In this document: positions 2,658 to 64,000 of the stretch, one piece after another
How the letters are laid out: each line of letters starts with the position of its first letter
How positions within the stretch are numbered: position 1 is the first letter of the stretch
From: a virus
Direction: 5' to 3' (one strand)
Length of the DNA: 64,000 nucleotides
Virus record (IMG/VR): IMGVR_UViG_3300029217_000180
Translations under genes and position numbers: made by a program
Notes under the pieces: model-generated
Database searches by the model: none
Told to the model about the DNA's origin: nothing
What the model saw: the letters and a program-made list of their open reading frames with translations, nothing else

Positions 2658-3383
2658 ATGGCTCTAATAAAGAGAGATAGAGAAAACTTCTGGATGTTAA
2701 ATTGGCTTGATGAATACATGACCGGTCACAAAGGATTTATATGTGGAGGATGTTTCAAAAACATATTCAATAAAGAAAAGGTAAAGGATCTTGATATTTT
2801 CTTTGAGAATAAAAGTGATTTTGATGATGCGGTACAGTATTTTGACAGCCAGACACCGGGATATGACGGAGACGATGTAAGAGATGAGAAATATCATTTC
2901 CACTACGAAAACGACAACGTAAAGGCGTACAAACACATTGAAACGGGTGTTGTGATTGAACTTTGTTGCAAAATATTTGGAAAACCGGAAGAAATTCTGA
3001 ATAAGTTCGATTTCACAATTACGAAGTTCGCATATTACAAAGAGGAAGTAGAGGATGAAACTGGTGCGGTAGCGGAAAAACAAGAACTTCCGTTTGAAAC
3101 TCTGGAAGATGAACATTTCTTAGAGGAAATTGGAAGAGCGGAAACACACATTGAGTACAAAATCCTGATGGATGATGCGTTTTTTGAACATCTACATCTT
3201 AAACGGATTGTGATTGATAAAGATATTCCATTTCCAATGAGCACTTTTGAACGGATGCTGAGATATGCAAAGTACGGATATTTCCCATGCAAAGAAACAA
3301 AGATGAAGATAATCAATGCACTTAGGGATTTGACAGACGAACAGGTTGAATTATCTGAAAGCCTTTATGACGGCATGGATTAA
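2658..3383 (+). CDS. Pol-beta superfamily nucleotidyltransferase
   Basis: ICGGCFKNIFNKEKVKDLDIFF fits hG[GS]x9-13DhD minimal NTase motif; AGGAGG RBS. Confidence 0.5.
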   Translation: MALIKRDRENFWMLNWLDEYMTGHKGFICGGCFKNIFNKEKVKDLDIFFENKSDFDDAVQYFDSQTPGYDGDDVRDEKYHFHYENDNVKAYKHIETGVVIELCCKIFGKPEEILNKFDFTITKFAYYKEEVEDETGAVAEKQELPFETLEDEHFLEEIGRAETHIEYKILMDDAFFEHLHLKRIVIDKDIPFPMSTFERMLRYAKYGYFPCKETKMKIINALRDLTDEQVELSESLYDGMD

Positions 3384-3392
3384 GGAGGAAAG

Positions 3393-3923
3393 ATGAAAAA
3401 GACAGCGAGAGTAATTATCACATCAAAGTGTGACCGGAAGTGCCCGGGGTGCTGCAACAGCAAATTGGACTACACATCATTGGCGAAAGTGATTGGCGGT
3501 ATCACGGCATTAAAGGACTATGAGGAAGTTGTGATTACCGGCGGAGAGCCTATGATAAATCCGGCACAGCTCTACACAGTCATTAAAATGCTCAGAAAGC
3601 AGAATAAGAGACAGAAAATCTATCTTTATACGGCTTGTCTGACAATGGACGATCATCCGGTAATTTTAAAACACTTGGACGGTATCACAGTAACAGTCCA
3701 TGCGGAAGCCACAGATGAGGATATTCGTAATCTGAAATACATGAGTTCCAATCTCTACGATGAGGACTTGGATATGCGCCTGTTTATCGACAAGAGGGCG
3801 TACGACAGGTACGACTTATCTAATATCTGCATGAAAACATGGGATGTAGTGAGAAAACTGGAATGGAAAGAAAAGTGCGATCCGGCAGAAAACGAAGAAC
3901 TGTTTTTGTGGAATCTTTATTAA
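3393..3923 (+). CDS. small radical SAM protein (QueE/NrdG-like single 4Fe-4S cluster activase family)
   Basis: CDRKCPGCC = CX3CX2C radical-SAM motif; ITGGEP glycine-rich SAM-binding motif; 176 aa. Confidence 0.7.
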   Translation: MKKTARVIITSKCDRKCPGCCNSKLDYTSLAKVIGGITALKDYEEVVITGGEPMINPAQLYTVIKMLRKQNKRQKIYLYTACLTMDDHPVILKHLDGITVTVHAEATDEDIRNLKYMSSNLYDEDLDMRLFIDKRAYDRYDLSNICMKTWDVVRKLEWKEKCDPAENEELFLWNLY

Positions 3924-11217: not shown

Positions 11218-12423
11218 TTATTCGCTTGCCTTGAAATTATATATAGGTTTCAGAATCGCAAGAATATCAACGGTTTCTCCAATACATTCCACAATCTCAT
11301 CAATAGGCTTGTATGCCATCGGTGCCTCATCTATGGTTTCCTCTGATACGGAAGTAGTGTAGATGCCATCCATAGAGTTTGAATAATCACTCATGTTTAG
11401 AGTTTCCTTTGCTTTCATCCGTGACATAAGCCGTCCAGCTCCATGCGGCGCAGAACAGTTCCAATCCTCATTTCCCTTGCCAGTTCCGAGAATACACCCA
11501 TCACGCATATTGATAGGGATAAGAACCTTTTCTTCGTACTTGGCAGAGATAGCACCTTTACGGACGATGTTGGAGTCGTGGTCGATATAATTGTGGATGC
11601 ACTCAAAATAATCCGGTATTTCCGCACCGACTCCCCATCCCATATGATTGCATATAATCTGTGCGATCATCACACGGTTGAAATATGCAAACTTCTGGCA
11701 GATACGCATATCATGTAAATACTGTTCACGATACTTTCCCTCTAAGTAGCACAGATCCTTTGGTAACTTCGGAGTAGTGGCGCGGAAGTTTTTGTGCAGT
11801 TCTTTTATTGCACCCTCAATCTCGGATTTCCTTCCGGCAGCCTTGTATTCCTCAATGAGCTTATTCTGACGCTCGTACAAATCGTCCTTGCCACACATCA
11901 ATTCATAGGCAAGGTTCTGATAGTAGTCCGCCACCTGTTTTCCAAGATTGCGGCTGCCAGTATGAATAACCAGATACTTATAACCGTCCTCCGCAACATC
12001 AACCTCAATGAAATGATTGCCACCGCCGAGAGTGCCGATAGAACGCTCAATGCGTTTGGTATCTCTCAATTCTCGGTAGCAGTAAAGATCCTGCAATTCA
12101 TCAAAACGGATCTGCCGGCCGTCATGCACATTTCTTCCGCTTGGAACATAAGTGCGAATGACTTTATCCAATCTATCAAAGTCGATTTCTCCGTGTCCGA
12201 TGCTTACGCAGAGCATACCGCATCCAATATCCACGCCAACGATGTTCGGAATTACTTTGTTTCCGAGATCCGCAGTAAAGCCAATGACACATCCCTTTCC
12301 GGCGTGAACATCCGGCATGATACGAACCTTACAGTCCTTAAAGGCATCCTGAGACAGAAGAGTGTTAATCTGTTCCAAAGCCTCATCTTCGATGGTTTTT
12401 GCATAAACTTTCAAATTACTCAT
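11218..12423 (-). CDS. rtcB: RtcB-family RNA 3'-phosphate/5'-OH ligase
   Basis: RIMPDVHAGKG, GTLGGGNHFIE, HTGSRNLG, SAPHGAGR conserved RtcB motifs; AGGAGG RBS before MSNLKVYAK start at 12423. Confidence 0.85.
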   Translation of the reverse strand: MSNLKVYAKTIEDEALEQINTLLSQDAFKDCKVRIMPDVHAGKGCVIGFTADLGNKVIPNIVGVDIGCGMLCVSIGHGEIDFDRLDKVIRTYVPSGRNVHDGRQIRFDELQDLYCYRELRDTKRIERSIGTLGGGNHFIEVDVAEDGYKYLVIHTGSRNLGKQVADYYQNLAYELMCGKDDLYERQNKLIEEYKAAGRKSEIEGAIKELHKNFRATTPKLPKDLCYLEGKYREQYLHDMRICQKFAYFNRVMIAQIICNHMGWGVGAEIPDYFECIHNYIDHDSNIVRKGAISAKYEEKVLIPINMRDGCILGTGKGNEDWNCSAPHGAGRLMSRMKAKETLNMSDYSNSMDGIYTTSVSEETIDEAPMAYKPIDEIVECIGETVDILAILKPIYNFKASE

Positions 12424-12433
12424 AGTGATCCTC

Positions 12434-13123
12434 CTATACTTTGTATGTTTTGTTATTTCCAGAATTTCCATTGTATTTTGTGAAAGGGCGAACCCATACA
12501 CGTTTACCGGTTTTGGTAGTTCGGTAAAATCCCCTCACACTTACCTGTTCGGTAGGCTTTGTGTAGTGCCTTTTTGTACCGTCTGCAGGAACAGGTCTGC
12601 TATCAATGCGGTATGTGGTTATCAGTGGTGTAGCACCGCCGGAACGGCGCAGGATTTTTCGATGCTTATGAGAAATGCGTTTCTCTTTCTGCTCCGTAGT
12701 CTCAATGCAGTTGCGGTAATGAGTTGCAAAACACATGAGAGAATGGAACTTCAATGCCTCCTTGTATGGCGTTCTGTCAGCGGCAAGAACCATCCGGGCA
12801 ACCTTTCGTTTCTCTTTGCTTAATCCGGCAGGAAAGACAATGTTTTCGATTTCCTGAGTTTTCGGATCATACCGATAATTGCAGACATACACGCCACCCA
12901 TATACAGATGCAGCCTGACGAATACACCCTCCTGCTCATAATAGAATTTAATATCTTCCTCCGGCAGCTCAACCAATGCGGAGGGGATGGGGATGCGGAA
13001 CTCTTCGGCATCCAACCAATCTTTATTTTGCTGATACCATTCAATGATCTTCTCTGTTTTCCCGATGGTATCGACTATGATTTTATTGCAGTTTGTAATA
13101 TCAATCATGCCTAAGACCTCCAT
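12434..13123 (-). CDS. hypothetical protein with basic C-terminus, upstream of rtcB in same operon
   Basis: 229-aa ORF, 10-nt gap to rtcB. Confidence 0.5.
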   Translation of the reverse strand: MEVLGMIDITNCNKIIVDTIGKTEKIIEWYQQNKDWLDAEEFRIPIPSALVELPEEDIKFYYEQEGVFVRLHLYMGGVYVCNYRYDPKTQEIENIVFPAGLSKEKRKVARMVLAADRTPYKEALKFHSLMCFATHYRNCIETTEQKEKRISHKHRKILRRSGGATPLITTYRIDSRPVPADGTKRHYTKPTEQVSVRGFYRTTKTGKRVWVRPFTKYNGNSGNNKTYKV

Positions 13124-36203: not shown

Positions 36204-37655
36204 ATGAGCTTCGCAGATGCAATGAGAAAAGACGGTTCATTTACCAGAACCGAAAACGGTGCTGTGGCTTTGAATACCACAGGAGACGCAAGACTGGATT
36301 TGTTCGGCACAATCGGATCCCTGAGAGAAGCTGATGAGGGCAGAATCGAAACACTGTTCGCAGAGGCATACAATCAGGATGCTCTTTTTGCCACAAAGAT
36401 TGCGTTCTATGCAAGGGATATTCGTGGAGGTCTTGGAGAAAGAAAGACTTTCAGAACAATCATCCGTTACATGGCGGAGAAACACCCGGAAGCACTCAGA
36501 CCGAACCTTGATTTGATTGGAGTATTCGGAAGATATGATGATATGTATTCTCTGATCGGAACTCCGTTAGAGGAAGATATGTGGGCTGCCATGAAGAAAC
36601 AGTTTGAGGAAGATTTGAAGAACCTCAATGACGGCAAGGCAATTTCCTTACTTGCAAAGTGGATTAAGACTGCGGATGCAAGCAGCAAGGAGACACGCAG
36701 ACTTGGCGTTATGACCGCACAGAAACTTGGCTATCCGGTCTACAATTTCAAGAGAATTGTCCGTAGCATGAGAAAACAGATCGGCGTTGTTGAAAGCCTT
36801 ATGTCTGCCGGAAAGTGGGATGAGATTAAATACCCAGAAGTTCCGAGCCGTGCAATGATGATTTACCGCAAGGCATTTATGAAGCATGATGAGGCACGAT
36901 TCAATGAATTTATCGGCAAGGTAGAAAAGGGAGATGCAAAGATCAATGCCTCAACACTATTCCCTTACGATATTGTTGAGAAGATCCTTTACGGCAGAGA
37001 GAGCAACAAGGTACTTGAAGCCCAGTGGAAAGCCTTGCCGGATTATGTGGAGAAAGGAACAAACGCTTTAGTTATGGCGGATGTGTCCGGTTCCATGAGA
37101 GGCAGACCTATGGCAACATCAATCGGTCTTGCAATCTATTTTGCAGAGAGAAATGTGGGTGCATACCACAATCTGTTTATGACATTCTCTGACAGACCAG
37201 AGACGGTTATTCTGAGGGGAGAAACCCTTGAACAGAAGATCCGCAACGTAAGCAGAGCAAATTGGGATAATAACACAGACCTTAAAGCTGCTTTTGAGAG
37301 GGTTCTTGAAATTGCGGAAAAACACAATACTCCGCAGGAGGAAATGCCGAAAGCAATCGTTGTCATATCAGACATGGAAATTGACTGTTGTGGAAACCGT
37401 GAGTGGTCTTTCTATGACAAGATGGCAAATAAGTTCCACAAGGCTGGTTATGTAATCCCAAACATTATCTTCTGGAATGTGAATAGCAGACACGAGGTAT
37501 TCCATGCAGATCACAACCGCAAGGGCGTGCAGCTTGCAAGCGGACAGTCCGTGACGGTATTCAAACAGATTCTGCAGAACCTTGGTTACAACCCGGTTGA
37601 GGCAATGGAGAACACAATCAATTCTGAGAGATATGATTGCATCACAGTTGAATAG
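36204..37655 (+). CDS. vWA (MIDAS) domain protein, probably Ro60/TROVE-like RNA-binding protein (DUF2828-type)
   Basis: LVMADVSGSM MIDAS motif, ..TFSD.. and IVVISDMEID vWA strands in C-terminal half; ~480 aa; N-terminal ARDIRGGLGER helical region; genomic context next to tRNA-like RNAs and phage RtcB. Confidence 0.55.
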   Translation: MSFADAMRKDGSFTRTENGAVALNTTGDARLDLFGTIGSLREADEGRIETLFAEAYNQDALFATKIAFYARDIRGGLGERKTFRTIIRYMAEKHPEALRPNLDLIGVFGRYDDMYSLIGTPLEEDMWAAMKKQFEEDLKNLNDGKAISLLAKWIKTADASSKETRRLGVMTAQKLGYPVYNFKRIVRSMRKQIGVVESLMSAGKWDEIKYPEVPSRAMMIYRKAFMKHDEARFNEFIGKVEKGDAKINASTLFPYDIVEKILYGRESNKVLEAQWKALPDYVEKGTNALVMADVSGSMRGRPMATSIGLAIYFAERNVGAYHNLFMTFSDRPETVILRGETLEQKIRNVSRANWDNNTDLKAAFERVLEIAEKHNTPQEEMPKAIVVISDMEIDCCGNREWSFYDKMANKFHKAGYVIPNIIFWNVNSRHEVFHADHNRKGVQLASGQSVTVFKQILQNLGYNPVEAMENTINSERYDCITVE

Positions 37656-37749
37656 AGTGTGTAACAGTAGGTGGCGGTCGGAATGACTACCACCTATTTT
37701 TTATGGAGAATTGAAAATGAACAATCAAAATTAGAATTTGGAGGTTAGA

Positions 37750-38145
37750 ATGGTAAAGAAAAGGACTATCTACACAACATCAGACGGAAAAGAGTTTGAT
37801 AATGAGAAAGAAGCGAAAGAACACGATGAAAAGATCATACGAGAATCAATCAAGGTCTATAAGGTGTACTACAATCCAGATTTGAATGAGGGCAGAGGAT
37901 ATGAAGATGATGGATATGTGTATGTTCATGCGAATAAGCATCACGATCAGTTTATAGAGTATTTCCTTTGCAAGAGGTTTGGGAATCCCATTTCCTTTGT
38001 CATGGGTACTTTTGGCTCAAATGCAATCATGCAGACATATATCTATCACGAAGTTCCTGAAAGTGATGTGAAAGCTGATAAGGTTCTGGCAAGGATAGAA
38101 GAGACCTTTGTGGATAAATTATGGGAGGATTCAATCAATGGATAA
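37750..38145 (+). CDS. hypothetical protein
   Basis: GGAGG RBS before ATG at 37750. Confidence 0.4.
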   Translation: MVKKRTIYTTSDGKEFDNEKEAKEHDEKIIRESIKVYKVYYNPDLNEGRGYEDDGYVYVHANKHHDQFIEYFLCKRFGNPISFVMGTFGSNAIMQTYIYHEVPESDVKADKVLARIEETFVDKLWEDSING

Positions 38146-38803
38146 ATACCTGAGTGTAATAACAAACTTTGGTTGCCACGGCAGGTGCCCTTACTGCATA
38201 GTCCGGGAGAATGGAATTAAAGTGCCGAAATCCACGGTGGACGGTCTGGATAAATTGGAGGATGCCATTACATTGACCGGAGCGAATATCGTATCTATCT
38301 CCGGCGGTGGAGATCCGCTTTACCGGTATAGTGACAATCCTCTTGTGCCTATGTATCTCGGAATGGTTATGGGTATCTGCATTAAAGCCGGTATTCCAAT
38401 GGAAATGCACACGAGCTACACAGAGTCGGAGTTTCCGTACCATTTCTGCAAAAGAGTGGTGTATCATCTGCAATCTGTTGAAGATTTGGAATGTGTGGAG
38501 AGACACGGAACGGAAATCGTAAGAGTAGTGTTCGTTGCAACAGAGAAATTATCGAAAGAGGACATTACCAAGATTTCAGACTTTGTTCATTCCTCAGACC
38601 AGATAGATGAACTCAGTTTCCGGCAGATGGTTAATGAGCGGTATGAGACGGAGTATTACAACCATGACTTTCTGAAAACCGGTCACGAAAAAGGATTGTG
38701 GCATTACATCCGGCAGAAAGATTATAACATCTACTACGCTGAGAACAGGATATACACGAAGTTCTCGGAGATCGGAGAGGACGATGGCAGAACAGACCTG
38801 TAA
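38138..38803 (+). CDS. small radical SAM protein (second copy)
   Basis: CHGRCPYC CX3CX2C motif, ISGGGDPL motif; GGGAGG RBS before MDKYLSV. Confidence 0.65.
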   Translation: MDKYLSVITNFGCHGRCPYCIVRENGIKVPKSTVDGLDKLEDAITLTGANIVSISGGGDPLYRYSDNPLVPMYLGMVMGICIKAGIPMEMHTSYTESEFPYHFCKRVVYHLQSVEDLECVERHGTEIVRVVFVATEKLSKEDITKISDFVHSSDQIDELSFRQMVNERYETEYYNHDFLKTGHEKGLWHYIRQKDYNIYYAENRIYTKFSEIGEDDGRTDL

Positions 38804-38993
38804 ACACAAGTTTCAGTTGACGTGTAAATCAAAGATTTTCGGAATTAAATCCTGCGAAATGCGATTAGAAACCGGAAAGCTGCTTACTTATATGCCGATC
38901 CCTGATGGAGTGAGGTTTTGTTTCGGAACAATTCAAAGGTTTTATGAGAGTGAAGAGGGACAGAAAATCATTCAGGAAAGGTTAGGACGGTAG
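38784..38993 (+). CDS. hypothetical protein
   Basis: 69-aa ORF. Confidence 0.35.
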   Translation: MAEQTCKHKFQLTCKSKIFGIKSCEMRLETGKLLTYMPIPDGVRFCFGTIQRFYESEEGQKIIQERLGR

Positions 38994-39260
38994 ATGAAAG
39001 TATCAAAAACAACCGTAAGGAATTATGAAATCTATGATTGCGCCAAGTGGCAGAGTACAATCGGAGAAACACTAATGTTCCGACAGTCACTCGGAGTTAA
39101 GAATAGAGGATTAGATAAGTGCTTTGCGTGCGGATATAAATTCGGTTCTGAGGAAAAACCGTATCTTGGTCTTATCAAGAACCATTCCAATCAATTTATA
39201 TGCCGGGAGTGTGCCATGAAAGTGAATCCAGAACGCGTTAGATACTCGGAGGAAAACTGA
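38994..39260 (+). CDS. hypothetical zinc-ribbon protein
   Basis: CFACG..n..CRECA. Confidence 0.4.
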   Translation: MKVSKTTVRNYEIYDCAKWQSTIGETLMFRQSLGVKNRGLDKCFACGYKFGSEEKPYLGLIKNHSNQFICRECAMKVNPERVRYSEEN

Positions 39261-39261
39261 T

Positions 39262-39417
39262 ATGAAATCGTGGTATTCAAATAGTGATGATATAGAACTG
39301 AAAGACGGAAGCAGAAAGAAAGAATACAAGGTTGTGTTTGAAACAGATTCAAAAGAACTCAAAGACGAAATTGAAAAATTCTTCCAGTGTTTGATGGATA
39401 GAAAGGATGGTAATTAA
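39262..39417 (+). CDS. hypothetical small protein (51 aa, not in ORF track)
   Basis: GGAGGAAAA RBS then ATG at 39262; MKSWYSNSDD... Confidence 0.35.
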   Translation: MKSWYSNSDDIELKDGSRKKEYKVVFETDSKELKDEIEKFFQCLMDRKDGN

Positions 39418-39419
39418 AA

Positions 39420-39623
39420 ATGGCATTTTGTCAAAGATGCGGAGGCTATTGTCAGGATCATTACACATACTGCAGGAAATGCTATTACGCATTAGGACAA
39501 CCGTATGGGAAAGCAATAGAGCGAGGACATAAATGCAGGGGATGCGGAGGAATCATTTACGGCAGATACAATTACTGCATGAGTTGCGCTCAACGAAAAG
39601 GTTTTATAAAAAACGATTATTGA
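39420..39623 (+). CDS. Cys-rich zinc-finger protein
   Basis: CQRCGGYC..CRKC..CRGCGG..CMSC four CxxC pairs. Confidence 0.4.
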   Translation: MAFCQRCGGYCQDHYTYCRKCYYALGQPYGKAIERGHKCRGCGGIIYGRYNYCMSCAQRKGFIKNDY

Positions 39624-39659
39624 CAGACGATATGCAGACGGAAAGAGGTTTACAGAAAT

Positions 39660-39974
39660 ATGAACACTACAAATTATGAAATGTGCAGATCATACCTTGG
39701 AACAATAGATTCCGTGAGTACAGAGGCAACTACGTTAATTCAAAGCATGAAAGCATACCATGCGGATCAGCAAGGACAGGCCAAACTCTATATTCACGCA
39801 GATGGAGGCAGAGATACAGCGACCTTACTCAGTCAGGAAGAGACAAATAAGACAATGGCATTGATATTGGAAACCTATGCTGCCAACATTAAAAATTCCA
39901 GAGATAAACTGATTGAGATTATAAATGCCGAGTATACCACGGTCCTTGAAGAAATTGAAAAACTGAAAGTTTAG
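39660..39974 (+). CDS. hypothetical protein
   Basis: 104-aa ORF. Confidence 0.4.
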   Translation: MNTTNYEMCRSYLGTIDSVSTEATTLIQSMKAYHADQQGQAKLYIHADGGRDTATLLSQEETNKTMALILETYAANIKNSRDKLIEIINAEYTTVLEEIEKLKV

Positions 39975-40016
39975 GAGGATGAGGTGTGAGATTGACCGAT
40001 GAAAGGAGAAGATATA

Positions 40017-40313
40017 ATGACAGAAGCACAGAAAAAAGCGGTTGAGGTGCAGAAAGAGATCGAAGAGGCCTGCATCCGGCATGGACTTAATCTTACTATC
40101 TTTGAAAATGGTATTGGATTTGTGGATCCCAAAGACAATAAAATTGTCATGGTATGGAGACCTAAGTATAAACCGGCACCGTCAGAAACACCACCTACAC
40201 AGAAACCGTCCGGCGGAAATATGTCCGCTTTCATATTTGGCGGTTCAAAGGGAAGTGGCAGATTTATGGGAAACAAAAGGAAACATACAGTCAGAGGAAT
40301 GAAACGGAGGTAG
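40017..40313 (+). CDS. hypothetical protein (starts MTEAQKK)
   Basis: AAAGGAG RBS before ATG 40017. Confidence 0.4.
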   Translation: MTEAQKKAVEVQKEIEEACIRHGLNLTIFENGIGFVDPKDNKIVMVWRPKYKPAPSETPPTQKPSGGNMSAFIFGGSKGSGRFMGNKRKHTVRGMKRR

Positions 40314-40319
40314 GTTGAT

Positions 40320-40676
40320 ATGCCAAGTTTTAAATTAAAACCGGAGCACATAAAGATTATGACAGACCTTAATTTTAGAATCTCCATTTTAATAGATTCT
40401 AAGGATAGGTATAGACCGGCAATAGATATTAAAAGACCATTCGGGAACAGCGGCCCCACAACGAATGTGTGTGAAATCATGGGATGGCACTGCGATGAAG
40501 AAAGTGGAGAATACGCTGCTGAGGATATTGAAAAAGCCGAAATGCTCATTATCGAGCTTCCAGTTGCTTTGCAGATCGTGATGCAAAACCACACATTTGA
40601 ACCCGGAGAGTATGAAGTAGGGAATATTCCTCGGCATACTTCAATTATGTTCACATTCGCAATTATCACGCATTAA
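40320..40676 (+). CDS. hypothetical protein
   Basis: 118-aa ORF. Confidence 0.4.
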   Translation: MPSFKLKPEHIKIMTDLNFRISILIDSKDRYRPAIDIKRPFGNSGPTTNVCEIMGWHCDEESGEYAAEDIEKAEMLIIELPVALQIVMQNHTFEPGEYEVGNIPRHTSIMFTFAIITH

Positions 40677-40723
40677 AATCTCCTATCGCAGAAATAGAGG
40701 AAAAATATAAAGACTGCGATCAA

Positions 40724-41062
40724 ATGGAAAGGTTACATGAAGTTTGTATGAATGTATCTGGCGATAACCCGTGGAAAGTGATTGACGATCTGAAATGGTT
40801 TGCCCAGACCGACTTTCTGGCAGATGCAATAGCGGTATTTGAAAAGCATCGAGACGAACAAATCCTTGATGAATGGCTGAAAACACATGACGGAGAGGAT
40901 TATTGCAAATATTGTCCCGAAAACGATGAATGTCCTCATGGAATGGCTTGTTATGGTGGAGAACCTATCGAGCCGTCTTGCTACGGAGCAGATATGAAAG
41001 AATTTCTTTACACGGACTCTATTATTGAGGATGCACTGGAGGAAAGATATGGCGAAGAATAA
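40724..41062 (+). CDS. hypothetical Cys-containing protein
   Basis: 112-aa ORF, CKYCPENDECPHGMAC. Confidence 0.4.
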   Translation: MERLHEVCMNVSGDNPWKVIDDLKWFAQTDFLADAIAVFEKHRDEQILDEWLKTHDGEDYCKYCPENDECPHGMACYGGEPIEPSCYGADMKEFLYTDSIIEDALEERYGEE

Positions 41063-41357
41063 CAAACTGATAAATTCCCTGAATGAAATCGCCAGAAGAA
41101 ACCGCTCACAGAACGTTGCTACTGCGGCAGACCAGATGGTTCCACAGATATATGCTGCGATTGCCATAGCACTTCACAGAACCTATGGATTCGGATATAA
41201 GCGTATCAATGATGTGTTCGTAGAATCACAGCATATTTGGGAAAGCTATGCTGGGGACGGAGCCGGTATGGTAAAGAAGTGTGAGGAAGAAACCGGAGTG
41301 ACGGTATGTAGCCCGGAAGAAGCACAGAGATTGATGGAGATGCAGAATGGAATGTAA
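41050..41357 (+). CDS. hypothetical protein (starts MAKNNKL)
   Basis: internal start with GGAGGAAAGAT RBS. Confidence 0.4.
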
Positions 41358-41496
41358 AGGAAATTGCGGATCATGTGCTTGGCATGATAATTTTAATGGG
41401 ACAACGGATTGGATATGCAGCAACGAGGACAGCGACAGCTACGGAGCAGTCACATCCTATGACGATTACTGCATTGATTACGAACCGAAACAATAA
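41347..41496 (+). CDS. hypothetical small Cys-rich protein (50 aa, not in ORF track)
   Basis: GGAG RBS then ATG; MECKGNCGSCAWHD.. Confidence 0.3.
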   Translation: MECKGNCGSCAWHDNFNGTTDWICSNEDSDSYGAVTSYDDYCIDYEPKQ

Positions 41497-41690
41497 AAAA
41501 CGAACTCAATTACACCATAAACTTTCAATTATATCATTTGACAAAGGATGACTATGTTAAAATATCGGTCTCACCGATATTCTATACATTTATCATCCTT
41601 TTTCTGTTAGAATGAGGGTGTCTTGGTAAAGGCGTTGGTGGATTATCCTTTTCTTATGTGGAGTAGTGCAATGCTACTCCATATTGCTAA

Positions 41691-41763
41691 GCCCGGATAG
41701 CTCAACTGGTAGAGCACTTGACTTGTAATCAAGAGGTTGTGGGTTCGACTCCCATTCTTGGCT
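41691..41763 (+). tRNA. tRNA-Thr (anticodon TGT)
   Basis: D-arm GCTCAACTGGTAGAGC, anticodon arm CTTGA-CTTGTAA-TCAAG, T-arm GTGGG-TTCGACT-CCCAT; one acceptor mismatch. Confidence 0.65.
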
Positions 41764-41837
41764 CTTACCTCTCGATAGAGGGTAATGGTTCCTCCATGAT
41801 AATATAGGGGCATGGGCGGCGATGAACCGCCCAGTAA

Positions 41838-41921
41838 TGTGCGGTGGTGCAGCATGGTAGCACGTCTGTCTGATACGCAGGAGATCATAGGTTCAAATCC
41901 TATTCGCACAACTATTTAATT
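41838..41921 (+). tRNA. tRNA-Ile (anticodon GAT)
   Basis: acceptor TGTGCGG/TCGCACA, D-arm GTGC-AGCATGGTA-GCAC, loop CTGATAC, T-arm ATAGG-TTCAAAT-CCTAT. Confidence 0.7.
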
Positions 41922-45524: not shown

Positions 45525-46517
45525 ATGGCACAGGGCACAGCAACATCATTCGCTGTTCCTAATTTTAGCGGAATGTTATTCGCTAAAGGGCAGCAGGCAA
45601 CACCGTTCTCTACTATGATTGGCGCAAGACCTCTTGTAACCAATCATGTAGAGTTTACTTGCGGTCAGGAGTACAACACAGAAACAGGCGAACAGCCTAA
45701 GATTTCTGAGACAGCATCCCTTACCGCTCCACAGCCGGAAATCGTAACCAGAAGTCAGCTTACCAATGTAACTCAGATCTTCCAGAAGTCCGTAGCGATT
45801 TCTTATGGAAAGCAGAGCAACATGGGTACACTGCAGGGCATCAACGTAGCCGGTCAGCAGGCAAATCCTATGGATGAACTTGCGTTCCAGGTATCTCGTA
45901 GAATGGCGAAGATCGCACAGGATATTGAGTACACTTTCATCAACGGTAAGTATGCGAAAGCTACTACTGATGCAGAGGCAAACCAGACCAGAGGACTTCT
46001 GACTGCGATTACAACCAACATACTCGATCTTGCAAAGAAACCTCTTACCTACTGGCTTGTAGCAGAGGGATTAAAGTCCATTCACGATCAGGGTGCAAAG
46101 ACAGACAATATCGTTCTCGGTGTAGATGCAACCACTATGTTGCAGCTCAACCTTGACGCTCAGCAGAACAACCTGACTATCGTTCCTCTCGGAAGAGAAG
46201 TAAACGGTATCAAGTTACAGACCGTAGTGACCCCTCTTGGAGAGGTAGCAGTCGCATTGTTCGATACCATGCCTGCCGGTACTGCCGTTCTGTTTGATCC
46301 GTCCATCATGGCCCCTGTTCATCAGATGGTTCCTGGTAAGGGTAATTTCTTCTTAGAGCAGCTTGCAAAGACAGGTGCAGGAGAAACTTATCAGATCTTC
46401 GGTCAGATCGGTCTGGATCACGGTCCTGAGTGGATGAGTGCGAAGTTTACTAATATTTCCACAGATCTTCCTAGCAAGATCACGGCAAGCGGTACAACGG
46501 GTACAGCGGGGGAATAA
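45525..46517 (+). CDS. major capsid protein (HK97 fold)
   Basis: 330 aa following scaffold, AAGGAGG RBS, typical MCP composition. Confidence 0.85.
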   Translation: MAQGTATSFAVPNFSGMLFAKGQQATPFSTMIGARPLVTNHVEFTCGQEYNTETGEQPKISETASLTAPQPEIVTRSQLTNVTQIFQKSVAISYGKQSNMGTLQGINVAGQQANPMDELAFQVSRRMAKIAQDIEYTFINGKYAKATTDAEANQTRGLLTAITTNILDLAKKPLTYWLVAEGLKSIHDQGAKTDNIVLGVDATTMLQLNLDAQQNNLTIVPLGREVNGIKLQTVVTPLGEVAVALFDTMPAGTAVLFDPSIMAPVHQMVPGKGNFFLEQLAKTGAGETYQIFGQIGLDHGPEWMSAKFTNISTDLPSKITASGTTGTAGE

Positions 46518-58290: not shown

Positions 58291-58908
58291 ATGGCTGATA
58301 TAGCAAATGTCACAGGAACACTTGACGATAAAGAACTGAATTTTCAGCACTCTATCGGAACCGTATATAAAGCCTCCGCAAGCATAGATGGTTCGGAAAA
58401 GGATCATGTAGCCGTATTGACGGCAACGGATTCTGCCGGGAATAGTACAACGGAAACAATGGTTATTTCTATCTCGGGTTCCTGGACCACTCCAAAAACA
58501 GATTGGTACGGTTACACAGACGATGATGGGATTTATCACGGAGACCGGTTCAACACGGAGGATTTCAACCGGATAAAGAACAACCTCGCATATCTCAGAG
58601 AGATAGCCGTGGCAATGTACCAGGAGTTTTCCATAAATGATCTGGGAGACGATAGGAGCAAAGACAAGTATTTTTATGCGGATGAGATAAATCAGTTGGA
58701 AGAAAACATTAAGCTCATAGCTGAAAACACATTTAAGCCGGACATAGGGGAGAACCCCTTATACACAGCGAATGGAAAGATTTTTGATTTCAACGAACTC
58801 AACCGCATTGAAAGCCTAATTTTGGATTTATTCAATCAGTTATTAAACCAATACAGAGGTCGGCAGATGCTTACCTTTAACTTTGGCATAAGGAGGGAGG
58901 CGTTCTAA
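58291..58908 (+). CDS. hypothetical tail protein
   Basis: 205-aa ORF. Confidence 0.4.
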   Translation: MADIANVTGTLDDKELNFQHSIGTVYKASASIDGSEKDHVAVLTATDSAGNSTTETMVISISGSWTTPKTDWYGYTDDDGIYHGDRFNTEDFNRIKNNLAYLREIAVAMYQEFSINDLGDDRSKDKYFYADEINQLEENIKLIAENTFKPDIGENPLYTANGKIFDFNELNRIESLILDLFNQLLNQYRGRQMLTFNFGIRREAF

Positions 58909-59697
58909 GTGGCGTGGGAACGATTAAAGACAGACTACAAGGATGCCGTATGGTCCGGTCTGCGGAAGTTCATACCTATTGATAATGGAGACGGCAGTTA
59001 TTCCGTAAAAGATGTGACCCAGTACACAGTGTACGATGAATCGTTTTTCGGTGCGTATGATGCCAACCGCATCAATACAGCCGTCAACGCAATCATGGCA
59101 GCATTGGAAAACGGAACAGATTTGTATGAGGTATTCACAGAGTTTTTTGAGAACCAGAAAGTTGAGTTTGACAAGAGAGCAAATCTGGATCTCGACTCAT
59201 TCAATATCTTTCTCGACAATTTGCAGGCAACGGCAAATGCGGATGTTGTGCAGTTAAAGAAAGACTACACATCTGAAATGACAACGTTTGAGAACAATCA
59301 GGAAATATTGTTTAATCAATGGTTTTCAATGATTAAAGATCAGTTGTCAGCGGATGCAGCCGGAAAATTACAGAATGAAATCAACGATGTGGAAACCCAC
59401 ATCAGAAACCTTGCAGTGAAGATACATTTCAACGATACCGTTGGAACTGCTGCTGCAATAACTGTACAAAATGTAACATCCGGTAACAAATATACTATTA
59501 CAGATTATACTCAGCCTTTGTATCTCACAGAGGCAGGAGAGTACACAATAAGCATTGCGAATGACAACTATATAGTTGCCCCAAAAACATTTTCTATCAG
59601 CAATGCGGATCTTATGACACATAAGACTTTCAGAATCATGGACGGCAACGGATTGGCGTTTGTCGATGGTTTTGTAGGAGCCTATGTAAATAAATAA
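58909..59697 (+). CDS. hypothetical tail protein (GTG start)
   Basis: AAGGAGGGAGG RBS then GTG. Confidence 0.45.
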   Translation: MAWERLKTDYKDAVWSGLRKFIPIDNGDGSYSVKDVTQYTVYDESFFGAYDANRINTAVNAIMAALENGTDLYEVFTEFFENQKVEFDKRANLDLDSFNIFLDNLQATANADVVQLKKDYTSEMTTFENNQEILFNQWFSMIKDQLSADAAGKLQNEINDVETHIRNLAVKIHFNDTVGTAAAITVQNVTSGNKYTITDYTQPLYLTEAGEYTISIANDNYIVAPKTFSISNADLMTHKTFRIMDGNGLAFVDGFVGAYVNK

Positions 59698-59711
59698 CGG
59701 AGGTAGACAAA

Positions 59712-60155
59712 ATGAGAGATTTCCCTAAGAGACTTGCAACCGCCGAGGACATTAGAAATTGTAAATCCTTGGTGGATGATGGCGCATTTGCAGCAAAAGA
59801 CCTGTTGGAAGCCATCGAAGATCTTGAAAACATGAATTATCTTCACTGCCCTATCCTTGCGGTAGGAGAGGATAAGAAAACAGTAACTATCAACTATTGT
59901 GCAGAGGCAAAGGCCGGAACAAAGGCAATCGTTGGCAACAAGACTGTGAACATCACGAATGTTACCCACGAAGAGGGAGAACCGGATGAGCACACTGGAG
60001 ATACCCAGTTGGAAACAACCATTATCTCCACTTCCGCTATGGTTTCTACCGAAGCCACGGAAATTGCAGTTACCGCACCTTACACAATTTATGACAGTCT
60101 CGGCATGACAGCCGAAGAACTGAATCAGATCAAGGAGGAATTGGCTAATGAGTAA
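59712..60155 (+). CDS. hypothetical protein
   Basis: 147-aa ORF. Confidence 0.4.
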   Translation: MRDFPKRLATAEDIRNCKSLVDDGAFAAKDLLEAIEDLENMNYLHCPILAVGEDKKTVTINYCAEAKAGTKAIVGNKTVNITNVTHEEGEPDEHTGDTQLETTIISTSAMVSTEATEIAVTAPYTIYDSLGMTAEELNQIKEELANE

Positions 60156-61251
60156 ATTCTACGGTTATGATGAGGCAATGGAGAATGATATTGCAAAGAT
60201 AACCACTCCAAAACTTGCTCTCATGTCTGATGTGGTGGCATCAGACAAGAAATTCATCCGCATGGAGAACGGAGCACTTACTGTAATCGCCGGAGTTCTG
60301 ATTGCAGTAGGAAATTCTGTTTTTAAGACAGAAAAGACCACACTCACAGCAAGCAATTTTGACGGAACAGCTTCAAAATTTGAAGTCGGAAAAGATTACT
60401 GCATTTATATCTGTGATCCTACTGGCGGAGATGCCACGAACTTTGCCGCAGAACAGTATCGTATTTCCCTTAATACGACATATCCAAACGGTTATACAGC
60501 AGTTACATCAAGAAAGATCGGCGGTTTCCATTACGGCGTAGTCAGAAAAACAAATAGTTCCGGTATTCCAATCAGCGCATCAGGCGCGGCATTAGGAAGT
60601 GGATGGGAAACAAACGTAACAGAGGGGATTGTTCCTAACTCTGTATGGACTCTTCTCCACAGGCCTACTTGCGATCCTACCGGAATGGTTTATATCGGAC
60701 CGTTCTGGGGAGACATATATCTTTCATCCGACAATGGTGCCAGTGGTTTGCAGAGCAAAAAGGGTGCTGTGCCGATTACTGGAACAGAGGGATTAAACTG
60801 GTATATCGCCAACGAGAGAGCTATGAGAGTAGGCAAGAGACTTCCTACCTACGCTGAGTTCTGTAAGGGTGCATACGGATCTCCGCAGGGAGCGGACGGC
60901 AACAACACTTACGCATGGTCCGCAACTTCCAATACAGCAAGAACCACTTGCGGAAATGTTAAGAACGCAGTTTCTGCAACGAACGTTCGAGACCTTGTTG
61001 GAAACGTATGGAAGTGGCTTGATGAGTTCATTCACGACCCTACCGGATCAGCATGGAACTGGTATGACGTTATGAGCGGTCAGAAAGTTGGCCAGCTTTA
61101 CATGGCCAACAACACCGGTTTGCGCGCGCTCGTTGGCGGTGGCGACTGGGACAACGGGGTTCACGATGGTTCGCGGACTGTGAGTTGCGGCAATTGTCCG
61201 TGGCACGTGAACGCGGACGTTGGCGTGTGGTGCGTCTGTGACTCGCTGTAA
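60148..61251 (+). CDS. tail fibre / receptor-binding protein; DGR target with C-terminal lectin-fold variable region
   Basis: C-terminal 127 nt (VR) match template repeat 61750-61876 with all 12 differences at template adenines. Confidence 0.7.
   Translation: MSKFYGYDEAMENDIAKITTPKLALMSDVVASDKKFIRMENGALTVIAGVLIAVGNSVFKTEKTTLTASNFDGTASKFEVGKDYCIYICDPTGGDATNFAAEQYRISLNTTYPNGYTAVTSRKIGGFHYGVVRKTNSSGIPISASGAALGSGWETNVTEGIVPNSVWTLLHRPTCDPTGMVYIGPFWGDIYLSSDNGASGLQSKKGAVPITGTEGLNWYIANERAMRVGKRLPTYAEFCKGAYGSPQGADGNNTYAWSATSNTARTTCGNVKNAVSATNVRDLVGNVWKWLDEFIHDPTGSAWNWYDVMSGQKVGQLYMANNTGLRALVGGGDWDNGVHDGSRTVSCGNCPWHVNADVGVWCVCDSL
61117..61243 (+). repeat. DGR variable repeat (VR)
   Basis: 127/127 alignable to TR; mismatches only where TR has A. 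Confidence 0.8.
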
Positions 61252-61295
61252 GCTGATGGGGACCGGCGAAAGCCGAGTCCCTTGCAGTTGAAAGG

Positions 61296-61706
61296 TTGGG
61301 TGTAATGGCATACGAAAGCAAATATGAAAATCCCTCCACTCTGAAAATGGACTACATCCATACAGAAGCACACCAGATGGCCTACGACCTATCGGTATAT
61401 CTCCACAAGAAAGTGAGAGAAATGCCACATTATGAGAAATTCACTCTCCAAAAGGATATACGAGAATGTATAGACGGAATCATGGATGAGATAGAAGCAT
61501 ACGAGAGGTCAAAGACAATCAGCCATCTTTACACAGCCGACAGGTTGAAAGGAAGATTGGTACGGAAAATCCGATTGGCACATGATCTCAAATATTCTGC
61601 AATGAACGACAGAGTATACAAATATTGTGCAACACAGATCGGTATTCTTGGTGCGTATATCGGAGGGTTAATAAACAAAGCACAAAAGGAAAAGAAATCA
61701 AAATAA
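61296..61706 (+). CDS. avd: DGR accessory variability determinant (Avd)-like protein
   Basis: 136-aa basic helical protein between target gene and TR/RT, canonical DGR position. Confidence 0.6.
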   Translation: MGVMAYESKYENPSTLKMDYIHTEAHQMAYDLSVYLHKKVREMPHYEKFTLQKDIRECIDGIMDEIEAYERSKTISHLYTADRLKGRLVRKIRLAHDLKYSAMNDRVYKYCATQIGILGAYIGGLINKAQKEKKSK

Positions 61707-61749
61707 GCAACTATCTTGGGGTAGCTGTTAATTCGCACTGTCGCTCCGT

Positions 61750-61876
61750 GGTTTGCACGCGCTCATTGGCGGTGGCAACTGGAACAACGGGGTTCACGAT
61801 GGTTCGCGGACTGTGAATTGCAACAATTATCCGTGGAACGTGAACACGAACATTGGCGTGTGGTGCGTCTGTGACT
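61750..61876 (+). repeat. DGR template repeat (TR)
   Basis: noncoding copy of VR rich in AAC codons, upstream of RT. Confidence 0.8.
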
Positions 61877-62045
61877 ATTTTGAAAACTGTCAGATTGGTG
61901 GAGCTATGGCTTGCCAACAAGGATTATTTGATAATCATTTATTGAATAGTCAGACGGCTATCCCGTCCCGTGCAAACCGGGCGAACTTAAAACAGCGAAG
62001 CCAAATAGTAGCGAAAGCGAAGGAAGTGTGGCGTAAGCATTATTT

Positions 62046-63074
62046 ATGAAGAGAATAACAGGTCTTATGAAAAACATCTGTACCATGAAGAACGCATTAA
62101 ACGCATACCAAAAAGCGAGGCGGTGCAAAAGGTACAGACCGGAGGTTTTGGAGTTTGAAGCAAACAGAGAGGAATATCTCGGCAAAGCCATTCGGGAATT
62201 GGAAAGTTTGACATATACTCCTGGAAAGTACAAGGTATTCAAAGTTTGGGAACCCAAAGAGCGTATAATCATGGCTTTGCCATTTTACGATAGGGTTATC
62301 CAACATATGATTGTCAATTACATAGAGCCGATATTTGAGCATCAGTTCATCTACCATTCCTACGCTTGCAGAAAAGGGAAAGGTGCTCACAGAGCCAGCA
62401 AGCAGTTGACAAGGTGGTTATATAATCTGGAAGTTGTGCAAGGTAAATCAGTCTATGTACTGAAAGCCGACATACACCATTACTTCCAGAGCATAGACCA
62501 CAAGGTTCTGAAAAGAGAAATTAGAACCTACATTAAAGACAAGGACTTACTCGTAATCCTTGACCGGATAATAGACCATAATGGGATATTCCCGGATGGT
62601 GTCGGCATACCGGTTGGAAATCTTACGAGCCAACTATTTGCCAACGTGTATTTACACCGATTGGATATGTTCGTAAAACATACACTTCATGCAGAACACT
62701 ACATGAGATATATGGATGATTTTGTGATTATATCAGAGGATCTTGAACAGTTGAAACGGTGGGAGAAACAGATAGAAATATTCCTTGCGGATGTTCTTAA
62801 ATTACAATTAAATCCAAAAACAACCATTGTTTATGCAAAGAACGGAGTGGATTTTGTTGGATATAGGCATTGGAACTCTACGAAGAAAATCAGAAAGGAT
62901 GCTATGCGTAGACTGAAACGCCTTATGAAGAATTTCAAAGATGGAACTATCACGGAAGAATTTTTCGACAAATCGTTTACAAGTAGAATTGGTTCGATAA
63001 AACACGCCGACACCTATAATCTGGTGCAGAAGATCACCTGTGAAGCAAAGGAGTTAAAGGAAAGTCATGCGTGA
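62046..63074 (+). CDS. DGR reverse transcriptase
   Basis: RT motifs incl. PVGNLTSQLFANVYL (DGR-type SQ motif) and YMDDFVI. Confidence 0.85.
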   Translation: MKRITGLMKNICTMKNALNAYQKARRCKRYRPEVLEFEANREEYLGKAIRELESLTYTPGKYKVFKVWEPKERIIMALPFYDRVIQHMIVNYIEPIFEHQFIYHSYACRKGKGAHRASKQLTRWLYNLEVVQGKSVYVLKADIHHYFQSIDHKVLKREIRTYIKDKDLLVILDRIIDHNGIFPDGVGIPVGNLTSQLFANVYLHRLDMFVKHTLHAEHYMRYMDDFVIISEDLEQLKRWEKQIEIFLADVLKLQLNPKTTIVYAKNGVDFVGYRHWNSTKKIRKDAMRRLKRLMKNFKDGTITEEFFDKSFTSRIGSIKHADTYNLVQKITCEAKELKESHA

Positions 63075-63279
63075 TGGAAGTTATGTCATTGTAGATAGGC
63101 TGTGTGAGGCAACCACACAACTGCTTGAAATAATTAAAAAGCAGGAAGAAATCATTGAGCAGTGCAGAATATCGGATGAACTGCATAAGGAACTCGATGA
63201 TATGAAAAACGACGTGGATCAGAAGATGGATTTAATTGAGTATGATTTGAGATCATACAGACGGGAGCGTGAAGAATGA
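63067..63279 (+). CDS. hypothetical coiled-coil protein
   Basis: 70-aa ORF. Confidence 0.35.
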   Translation: MRDGSYVIVDRLCEATTQLLEIIKKQEEIIEQCRISDELHKELDDMKNDVDQKMDLIEYDLRSYRREREE

Positions 63280-63614
63280 TAGATTTTATCGTGAAATATT
63301 GGATCGAGTTTCTTTTTGGATTGATAATCAGTGGAATGGGCGTGATGGCGAAGCTGATGTACAATCAGCACTTAAAAAACAAAGCCATTGACAAGGGCGT
63401 AGAAGCTCTTTTAAGAAATGGTATCGTTCAGACATACAATAAGTGGTCTGAGAGGGGTTACTGCCCCATATACGCACGAGAGAACGCCACAAGGATGTAT
63501 GAACCTTATCACATACTTGGCGGAAATGATGTTGCGACAGACTTAATCGAAGATCTGAAAGGACTACCGACAGAACCGCAAAAGAAGAAAGAGGGTGTAG
63601 AAGATGATACTTAA
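63276..63614 (+). CDS. holin-like membrane protein
   Basis: N-terminal TM helix WIEFLFGLIISGMGV, 112 aa, end of structural module. Confidence 0.4.
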   Translation: MIDFIVKYWIEFLFGLIISGMGVMAKLMYNQHLKNKAIDKGVEALLRNGIVQTYNKWSERGYCPIYARENATRMYEPYHILGGNDVATDLIEDLKGLPTEPQKKKEGVEDDT

Positions 63615-64000
63615 AATTTTTATAGGTTTCGCTCTCGGTTACATTGCAGCTTGCGTGACATTTTACATCCTGCAGAAAAGAGAGCGTAGGCGGAGAAAAG
63701 AGAAGAAAAAGAAAGTAAGCCTGAACACCTATGCAAAGGTAGCCACTACTGCGGTATTGGCTCATGGGATGATCCTTACATCGTGTTCCTATGTTCTCTC
63801 ATGGATAGGCATGGACCCGGTGGTGGATGTATCAAGCACAATCGTCAAAGAAATCGTAGCTCCATTGGTGGTTTACCTTGGAACAAATACGATTATGAAC
63901 ATCTTTGAAAAGAACAAACTCAGTTTTTCAGTACCAATCAACAGCACCGTCATAAGCAAAGACGGAACCACACACAAAGCCTCTGATGATGAGGCAGTAG
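63603..64000 (+). CDS. membrane protein, partial (runs off window end)
   Basis: ATG at 63603, TM helix FIGFALGYIAACVTFYIL, basic RRRRKEKKKK loop, second hydrophobic segment. Confidence 0.3.

Follow-up and report, generated by a model that had tools for sequence, protein, structure and literature searches.

A BPP-1-type diversity-generating retroelement that very probably diversifies the Mtd-like receptor-binding protein of a temperate gut-Lachnospiraceae siphophage

Introduction

Diversity-generating retroelements (DGRs) of phages that act on C-type-lectin receptor-binding proteins have been known since Bordetella phage BPP-1, and have been catalogued widely in gut viromes. In gut Bacillota (Lachnospiraceae, Faecalibacterium), prophage DGRs were described in preprints on the GuFi-phage and on "Hodor"-megaplasmid prophages and in a Faecalibacterium prophage study, and a Eubacterium rectale DGR element was already included in Guo et al. 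2011 (PMC3240598). Here, we describe a DGR located near one end of a 64,000-nucleotide viral sequence, IMG/VR record IMGVR_UViG_3300029217_000180 (the whole stretch is referred to below as the window), and compare it with these systems.

Several properties of the BPP-1 prototype are relevant for the comparison. The BPP-1 cDNA is primed from the 2′-OH of spacer (Sp) residue A56 and starts at residue G117 of the template repeat (TR), with TR-spacer base pairs adjoining the priming site and A56 itself paired with TR U118 (PMC6182149). Retrohoming of BPP-1 requires a stem, whose structure rather than sequence is important, and a GRNA loop; under the published rule, the GC stem is 7-10 bp long, the loop is GRNA, and the structure is 4-34 bp away from the variable repeat (VR) (Guo et al., PMC3240598). 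The reverse transcriptases (RTs) of DGRs carry the signature [I/V/L]GxxxSQ, as opposed to QGxxxSP, and adenine misincorporation by the complex of the BPP-1 RT (bRT) with the accessory variability determinant Avd is ~52 % (PMC7826257).

Results

Anatomy of the element

The target gene, avd, TR, and the RT gene follow each other on one strand, with the spacer separating TR from RT, and all four components are intact (Table 1). The VR and the TR align without gaps over 127 nt, and their similarity ends abruptly at both sides. There are 12 mismatches between the two repeats. All of them are at TR adenines (11 A>G and one A>C), and all affect position 1 or 2 of codons of the target open reading frame (ORF) 60148-61251. 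Given 27 adenines among the 127 TR positions, the hypergeometric chance of 12 random mismatches all falling on A is ~8e-10. The VR is translated as GLRALVGGGDWDNGVHDGSRTVSCGNCPWHVNADVGVWCVCD(SL*), and the C-terminus of the target protein reads ...GLRALVGGGDWDNGVHDGSRTVSCGNCPWHVNADVGVWCVCDSL*. The adenines located upstream of the predicted site of cDNA initiation are spread over 17 codons, nine of which are AAY. A-to-N changes at the TR adenines were computed to yield 4.5e15 DNA variants and 2.5e15 protein variants, while a stop codon cannot be reached by such changes in any TR codon. No further copy of the VR was found on either strand of the 64-kb window.

A first-pass annotation, made from the letters alone, had claimed a complete DGR at 60148-63074. 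The coordinates and the length of both repeats, and also how many mismatches they have and of what kind, were reproduced by the gapless alignment, and the VR peptide it had given is the same as the computed translation. The 60148-63074 span begins where the target ORF starts and ends where the RT ORF stops. The canonical order that had been assigned to an Avd-like gene and an RT with the SQ motif also stands: the order is that of BPP-1, Avd is recognised by a profile, and the RT contains VGNLTSQ.

An additional ORF (61753-62049 (+), 98 aa, TTG start) runs across the TR and on through the entire spacer as far as the start of the RT. It was rejected as a gene, because it reads the TR in the frame of the VR, and because the spacer, which is 166, 168, or 169 nt long among close relatives, breaks the frame.

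Table 1. Positions of the DGR components and of predicted functional sites in the window.
Feature	Position	Strand	Remarks
Target gene, 367-aa Mtd-like receptor-binding tail protein	60148..61251	+	Mtd second domain and C-type-lectin/FGE-sulfatase fold
Variable repeat (VR)	61117-61243	+	codes for the 42 residues that precede -SL*; 17 codons can be diversified
VR 3′ end, nearly A-free (GGCGTGTGGTGCGTCTGTGACT)	61222..61243	+	presumed counterpart of the GC-rich part of the BPP-1 initiation of mutagenic homing (IMH) sequence
Hairpin/cruciform GGGGACCGGC-GAAA-GCCG(A)GTCCCT	61258..61282	+	starts 7 nt after the stop codon; fold z -2.4
avd, 133-aa accessory variability determinant (four-helix-bundle protein)	61305..61706	+	between target and TR
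Template repeat (TR)	61750-61876	+	27 A, 26 of them mutable
Predicted cDNA start G61871 (equivalent of BPP-1 TR G117) and TR-side duplex strand TGACTATTT	61871..61880	+	placed by the shared GCGTCTGTGAC/GCGTCTGTGCC motif
Spacer (Sp) of the DGR RNA, 169 nt	61877..62045	+	blocks ATGGCTTGCCAAC; AATAGTCAGACGG; TAGTAGCGAAAGCGAA conserved down to BPP-1
Predicted spacer strand of the priming duplex, AATAGTCA	61945..61952	+	lies in AATAGTCAGACGG; priming adenosine predicted at A61952
DGR reverse transcriptase, 342 aa	62046..63074	+	Pfam RVT_1 3.7e-21

Adenine-specific variation of the VR in related phages

A search of IMG/VR with the RT protein yielded 227 related stretches. Eighty loci were kept, ~45 of them at least 95 % identical and located on contigs of up to ~85 kb, and 34 loci (window included) that have both repeats were used for VR-TR comparison. 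The first-pass annotation had named a lack of VR variation as the observation to look for in order to dismiss the element. The VRs of the 34 loci represent 32 distinct sequences, while TR differences do not exceed one or two bases, with the exception of locus L001. VR-TR differences are at TR adenines in 416 of 430 cases, with 258 A>G (62 %), 88 A>T, and 70 A>C. Nucleotide diversity (pi) is 0.010 in the TR and 0.130 in the VR. Within the VR, it reaches 0.553 at A-templated sites and is 0.016 at the other 100 sites; since the background pi among these phages is 0.04-0.08, the VR as a whole is only about twice as diverse as the average per 100 nt. The proportion of mutable adenines that are changed is ~47 %, both in the window and across loci, which is close to the value reported for bRT-Avd.

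The same picture of a constant TR and a varying VR among related genomes, i.e., of one-way information flow, emerges from protein statistics. In an independent protein collection, at least 1000 contigs carry the exact RT and at least 1000 the exact Avd, as opposed to 4 contigs for the exact target sequence. The 90 % cluster of the target contains 3,535 distinct members. The 14 members that were sampled differ from the window protein at 9-15 VR residues, and of the 17 mutable codons, 16 are affected, as against a single VR position outside them.

We considered the possibility that the DGR is decayed, i.e., that its parts are recognisable but it no longer diversifies its target, with the 12 mismatches left from past activity. 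Present activity cannot be told from past activity in a single genome; in addition, the predicted priming nucleotide is changed in one near-identical element, L023, and two pairs of loci have identical VRs. The members of these pairs are, however, also identical across all 5,528 nt that were compared outside the VR, and most likely represent the same phage sampled twice. In contrast, pairs of near-identical phages with 5-13 differences over these 5,528 nt (~99.8-99.9 % identity) differ at 11-22 of the 127 VR positions (9-17 %). All ORFs of the element are intact, the catalytic motifs are kept (an RT inactivated at YxDD, the other sign of a false call named in the first-pass annotation, was looked for, and YMDD was found intact), the TR, hairpin, and spacer motifs are conserved, and thousands of target variants coexist with essentially one RT sequence. 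A fossil element is thus very improbable, and the data argue for a DGR that has kept diversifying its target.

In locus L001 (IMGVR_UViG_3300014778_000012, repeats at 3071-3198 and 3704-3831), the TR itself is changed at adenines, and mismatches go both ways (8 at TR-A and 4 at VR-A). This pattern is most simply explained by a TR/VR chimera arising from short-read assembly.

The reverse transcriptase and Avd

The best solved relative of the RT is BPP-1 bRT (cryo-EM structure, PDB 8UB7 chain A, 1.5e-50 over residues 2-327); among other RT classes in the PDB, RTs of group II introns match at 4e-17, and chains that were deposited under the name "retron-type" RT at 5.5e-17. A PHROGs search assigned the protein to PHROG 1423 (5.9e-126). 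The RT contains YMDD at residues 222-225 (nt 62709-62720), VGNLTSQ at residues 190-196 (nt 62613-62633), and Arg73, which corresponds to bRT Arg74. At the position of bRT Ile181 there is a Val, which the [I/V/L]GxxxSQ signature permits.

The avd gene lies immediately upstream of the TR, and its position and size match those of BPP-1 avd. As a single sequence, its product matched NCBIfam DivGenRetAVD at 5.5e-11 (42.7 bits, cut-off 80) and Pfam bAvd at 2.6e-9 (37.9 bits, cut-off 40), and a phmmer search of the PDB with the single sequence returned nothing relevant. With a profile built from 16 orthologues from diverged loci, the sole significant matches in the PDB were BPP-1 Bbp7/Avd, 4DWL (1.6e-5) and 8UB7 chain B (9.6e-5). 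The exact Avd sequence is named "Avd-like protein" in one public record.

These results bear on a trivial explanation, according to which the repeats stem from an ordinary tandem-like duplication of the 3′ end of a gene, drifted or recombining among phages, next to an unrelated RT of a retron or a group II intron. Names given to the RT in public records include "retron-type reverse transcriptase", its best NCBIfam match is a group II intron RT/maturase model, and ORF 59712-60155, upstream of the target, contains a mosaic patch that is not A-specific. However, NCBIfam models for retron and group II intron RTs score far under their cut-offs, no Rfam family is matched, the RT is closest to bRT and has the DGR-specific SQ motif instead of QGxxxSP, and both Avd and a GRNA hairpin are DGR-specific accessories. 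Moreover, mismatches are confined to TR adenines in the window and nearly so across its relatives, and the other 100 VR sites are almost invariant. We therefore give a fortuitous duplication practically no chance, and the DGR assignment holds.

The Rfam scan, which covered 59500-64000 at E up to 1, matched no family, spacer included; to our knowledge, no curated Rfam family covers DGR RNA.

The target protein

The target protein matches Pfam families mtd_2nd (5.4e-28, 98 bits, cut-off 24.6) and FGE-sulfatase (3.6e-7), both above cut-offs. The sequences of Mtd crystal structures (PDB 1yu0-1yu4, 2iou) align with target residues 34-367 at an E value of 1e-15, and in PHROGs the protein belongs to PHROG 11262 "tail protein" (7.7e-68). 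In deposited phages, the only relatives detected by tblastn were mtd of BPP-1/BMP-1/BIP-1, a gene of Chromohalobacter phage YPCBV-1 that is annotated as a DGR target, and a few tail proteins. The gene is the last of the tail module, and is followed by genes of small membrane proteins.

A lectin-fold tip of a tail fibre had been proposed in the first-pass annotation. The lectin fold is borne out by the FGE-sulfatase match and by Mtd homology that extends to the C-terminus. The location at the tip is suggested by Mtd homology, the PHROG assignment, and the position of the gene in the tail module. The DGR rewrites 17 codons at the presumed tip of a receptor-binding tail protein.

Immediately upstream of the target gene is a 147-aa ORF, 59712-60155, that has no family match. 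A patch of this ORF, 59846-60100, differs densely from the Diplocloster prophage copy described below, and shows the highest diversity outside the VR among relatives. Because the differences are not adenine-specific, they represent mosaic, or recombinational, variation, and the ORF is not a DGR target.

The VR 3′ end and the post-VR hairpin

The segment at 61222-61243 is invariant in the 34 loci, except for one G/C polymorphism that is common to the TR. At its 3′ end, the VR shares the 11-mer GCGTCTGTGAC exactly with the BPP-1 VR at the corresponding place. By analogy with published systems (PMC3240598, PMC5758913), the segment would be the zone where the 3′ end of the cDNA is integrated.

The hairpin downstream of the VR is consistent with the published rule for stem, GRNA loop, and distance. 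In diverged relatives, the stem is preserved by compensated changes (GGCGG.CGGC, CGGC.GGGC, and CGGC.GGAC), double changes are observed at 6 of the 9 pairs across clades, and none of 500 shuffles reached the observed covariation. The loop is always GRAA, and the bulged A is kept across clades. Based on the BPP-1 literature, the hairpin is likely to be the element by which the DGR recognises its target. The structure could instead be only a transcription terminator or an mRNA-stabilising stem of the target gene, as it is GC-rich and is located just past the stop codon; furthermore, group IIC introns, which are related to DGRs, target terminator stems (PMC3240598), and the two roles need not exclude each other. 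However, there is no T tract after the stem, and a terminator scan did not call the hairpin. A constant GRAA loop and a bulged A combined with a covarying stem are more constraint than a terminator needs, and size, loop, and distance match the rules experimentally required for BPP-1 retrohoming. In addition, avd begins 22 nt downstream, and probably needs read-through or a promoter of its own. A purely terminator-like role is therefore unlikely, and a role in target recognition is preferred.

The predicted priming site

Counting from the BPP-1 sequence record, Sp A56 is the A of GGTCAGC. In the window, the spacer duplex strand was located by a complementarity search, since a MAFFT alignment of BPP-1, YPCBV-1, and Lachnospiraceae spacers misplaced the GTCAG motifs. 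AATAGTCA is complementary to TR positions 61872-61879 (TGACTATT), directly 3′ of G61871, and a further G-U pair extends the duplex to nine consecutive pairs. The predicted duplex is kept by double changes, being TGATT/AATCA in the clade of locus L139 and TGACC/GGTCA in YPCBV-1. By analogy with BPP-1, A61952 may be the priming adenosine, the equivalent of Sp A56. The only TR adenine 3′ of the predicted start is at 61874, which corresponds to VR position 61241; this position is A in 34 of 34 VRs, as the priming model predicts. Another stem, ACGG/CCGT, that can be drawn in the spacer of the window was dropped, because close relatives have CCCGACC.

The substitution spectrum

The share of A>G substitutions in VRs of loci L001-L172 is 57-63 % in two clades of Lachnospiraceae-phage elements and 40 % in a third, while the BPP-1 record contains 11 T, 4 G, and 3 C. 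The commonest outcomes at AAY codons are N, S, G, D, and Y. Enzyme bias and selection on the binding surface may each produce such a spectrum, and are inseparable in these data. Preferential intrinsic insertion of C opposite template A by RTs of the Lachnospiraceae-phage DGR lineage, unlike bRT, for which insertion of dATP leads to A>T, is a tentative idea that we consider rather less probable than its negation; such a bias could be linked to the Val at the Ile181 position of xGxxxSQ. If this were true, Ser, Gly, and Asp would be favoured in the repertoire that the element can reach.

Comparison with described DGRs

The sizes of the components are similar in BPP-1 and in the window: 381 and 367 aa for Mtd and the target, 134 and 127 nt for VR/TR, 128 and 133 aa for Avd, 144 and 169 nt for the spacer, and 328 and 342 aa for RT, with the same gene order on one strand. 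Homology of the target to Mtd covers the stretch from the second domain of Mtd through to the C-terminus. When the two TR translations are aligned without gaps over 38 aa, 12 of the 13 A-containing codons of the BPP-1 TR coincide with A-containing codons of the window, which implies that the scaffold for diversification, too, is homologous to the one in Mtd. BPP-1 has a CGGGGCC-GAAA-GGCCCCG hairpin after the stop codon, so that a GAAA loop is present in both elements, and both spacers contain a GTCAG motif, the putative priming motif of the window, that is complementary to the TR 3′ end. YMDD, xGxxxSQ, and the Arg74 equivalent are likewise shared.

The two systems also differ in a number of ways. 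Identity is 36 % for RT and ~28 % for the target, Avd similarity is detectable by profile only, and the N-terminal ~33 residues of the target cannot be aligned to Mtd. The hairpin of the window contains a bulged A and starts 7 nt past the stop codon, while the BPP-1 hairpin follows the stop codon directly; the predicted TR-spacer duplex of the window is longer and fully paired (9 pairs), while that of BPP-1 contains a C-U mismatch. Compared with bRT, the RT of the window has Val for Ile181, and natural substitutions in its lineage are mostly A>G, whereas those of BPP-1 are mostly A>T. Instead of Bordetella, the probable host is a Gram-positive anaerobe of the gut, and the carrier is a siphophage of ~80 kb with a tape-measure protein and a tRNA array, whereas BPP-1 has a genome of 42 kb.

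The closest homologue of the target in the deposited phage collection is that of Chromohalobacter phage YPCBV-1 (GenBank OP380511), with 39 % identity over 81 % of the query. The order target-Avd-TR-RT is the same there, Avd is annotated, the TR 3′ motif is GCGTCTGTGAC, and the spacer contains GGTCAG. YPCBV-1 differs in being a myovirus-like phage of a halophile with baseplate genes, and in having the duplex TGACC/GGTCA instead of the TGACT/AGTCA of the window.

The described prophage DGRs of gut Bacillota have the same setting as the DGR in the window, with the cassette between tail and lysis modules, C-type lectin (CLec) tail proteins as targets, and VR divergence between otherwise similar genomes. 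The targets in the "Hodor" preprint have "no obvious homologs", whereas the target in the window has a recognisable Mtd second domain. No match of the window phage lineage to these phages by name or accession was made. Judged by sequence, the element is of architecture B1 (target-avd-TR-RT) with an Mtd/CLec1 target, the class to which the prototype itself belongs (Wu et al. 2018, PMC5758913).

The carrier phage and its host

The window is phage DNA throughout. Among its products are a terminase, a portal and a major head protein, a tape-measure protein of 1,561 aa, and Ig-like tail proteins; an integrase-like gene, a gene for an RtcB ligase, and 13 tRNA genes are also present. When 58900-63300 was compared by megablast with 50,697 deposited phage genomes, there was no match; that collection thus lacks a close relative of the phage, cultured or deposited. 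An RT that is 100 % identical is encoded mid-way in a 355-kb contig of a cultured Lachnospiraceae isolate, Diplocloster hominis CSJ-3, where the element has its own, different VR with 17 A-substitutions. The exact Avd sequence is found on a 2.47-Mb contig, which indicates that the phage is temperate. The host is probably Diplocloster or a related member of the Lachnospiraceae, in which the phage resides as a prophage. Dozens of Lachnospiraceae genomes and metagenome-assembled genomes contain RTs with 55-64 % identity in a cassette whose VR/avd/TR/RT spacing is the same.

A near-uniform DGR element with the same VR/TR layout is found in loci L052-L080, L123-L136, and L163, whose RTs are ~58 % identical to that of the window. 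The assemblies that contain it are labelled Phascolarctobacterium, Segatella copri, Roseburia, Coprococcus, and Oscillospiraceae, which suggests either a widely spread prophage or binning contamination. An automatic TR/VR detector returned no VR for this clade; this was a threshold artefact caused by alignments overrunning the repeat, and the layout there is identical.

Other genes of the phage were noted in passing. The tRNA array occupies 31127-41912, and for the gene at 33373-33446 ARAGORN predicts the four-base anticodon "acca". The phage further encodes, at 11218-12501 (-) and 36177-37655 (+), a tRNA ligase of the RtcB type and a DUF2828/VWA "RNA-binding protein"; together with the array, these resemble a module for tRNA repair or replacement, perhaps directed against host anticodon nucleases. 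The deposited sequence closest to the major head protein (45525-46517 (+)) comes from a single unannotated human-faecal phage record (63.5 % identity). The next relatives, at 31-38 %, are from phages of Actinobacteria (Mycobacterium, Propionibacterium, Eggerthella, and Bifidobacterium), despite the apparent Lachnospiraceae host.

Discussion

The anatomy of the locus, the homology of its parts to those of the prototype, the conservation and covariation of its cis-elements, and the adenine-specific hypervariation of the VR opposite a constant TR leave us almost certain that the window contains a complete BPP-1-type DGR, carried by a temperate siphophage of gut Lachnospiraceae and acting by mutagenic retrohoming on the Mtd-like receptor-binding protein of that phage.

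Following the BPP-1 literature, the element would function as follows. The avd-TR-spacer-RT region would be transcribed, and the TR-spacer RNA would be bound by a complex of RT and Avd. Pairing of the spacer strand at 61945-61952 with the TR end would position the 2′-OH of A61952 as a primer, with synthesis starting at G61871. The RT would then copy the TR towards its 5′ end, faithfully at G, C, and U, and placing a wrong base at about half of the 26 adenines. The resulting cDNA would replace the VR, which is presumably marked as the target by its invariant GC-rich 3′ end and by the GAAA-loop hairpin; the TR, which is without both flanking marks, would stay unchanged. Up to ~2.5e15 protein variants, none with a stop, could be generated in this way at 17 surface codons of the C-type-lectin domain, and the phage would presumably change or widen its receptor specificity.

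Several points weigh against this reading or parts of it. Avd scores under the curated cut-offs of both Pfam and NCBIfam, and the tail-fibre tip location of the target is drawn from homology and synteny. The statistics of the TR-spacer duplex are moderate: with six hand-chosen segments, 5 of 500 shuffles reached the covariation score, and RNAalifold found no confident structure (-3 kcal/mol, 10 pairs) in 16 sequences comprising the TR end and the spacer. The near-identical element L023 (IMGVR_UViG_3300045988_075989) has a T at the position equivalent to 61952 (AATAGTCTGACGG), and its VR nonetheless contains 13 adenine substitutions; the VR may be old, the T may be an assembly error, or the assignment of the priming nucleotide may be inexact. 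The predominance of A>G differs from the dATP-favoured misincorporation by bRT in vitro. Finally, differences across samples attest to repeated past diversification rather than to the rate or the present activity of this copy.

The element is a textbook DGR and not a new kind of system, and the A>G-dominated spectrum is its sole mildly unusual feature; the biology is what was to be expected from BPP-1 and from gut viromes. Its practical value is that of an unusually clean, complete, and evidently active DGR in a very prevalent human-gut phage. The conserved hairpin and the predicted TR-spacer pairing extend the cis-element rules established for BPP-1 to a distant lineage. Given the identical RT in isolate CSJ-3 and the prevalence of the phage, this DGR could serve as a system for studying DGR-driven tropism switching in Gram-positive gut anaerobes.

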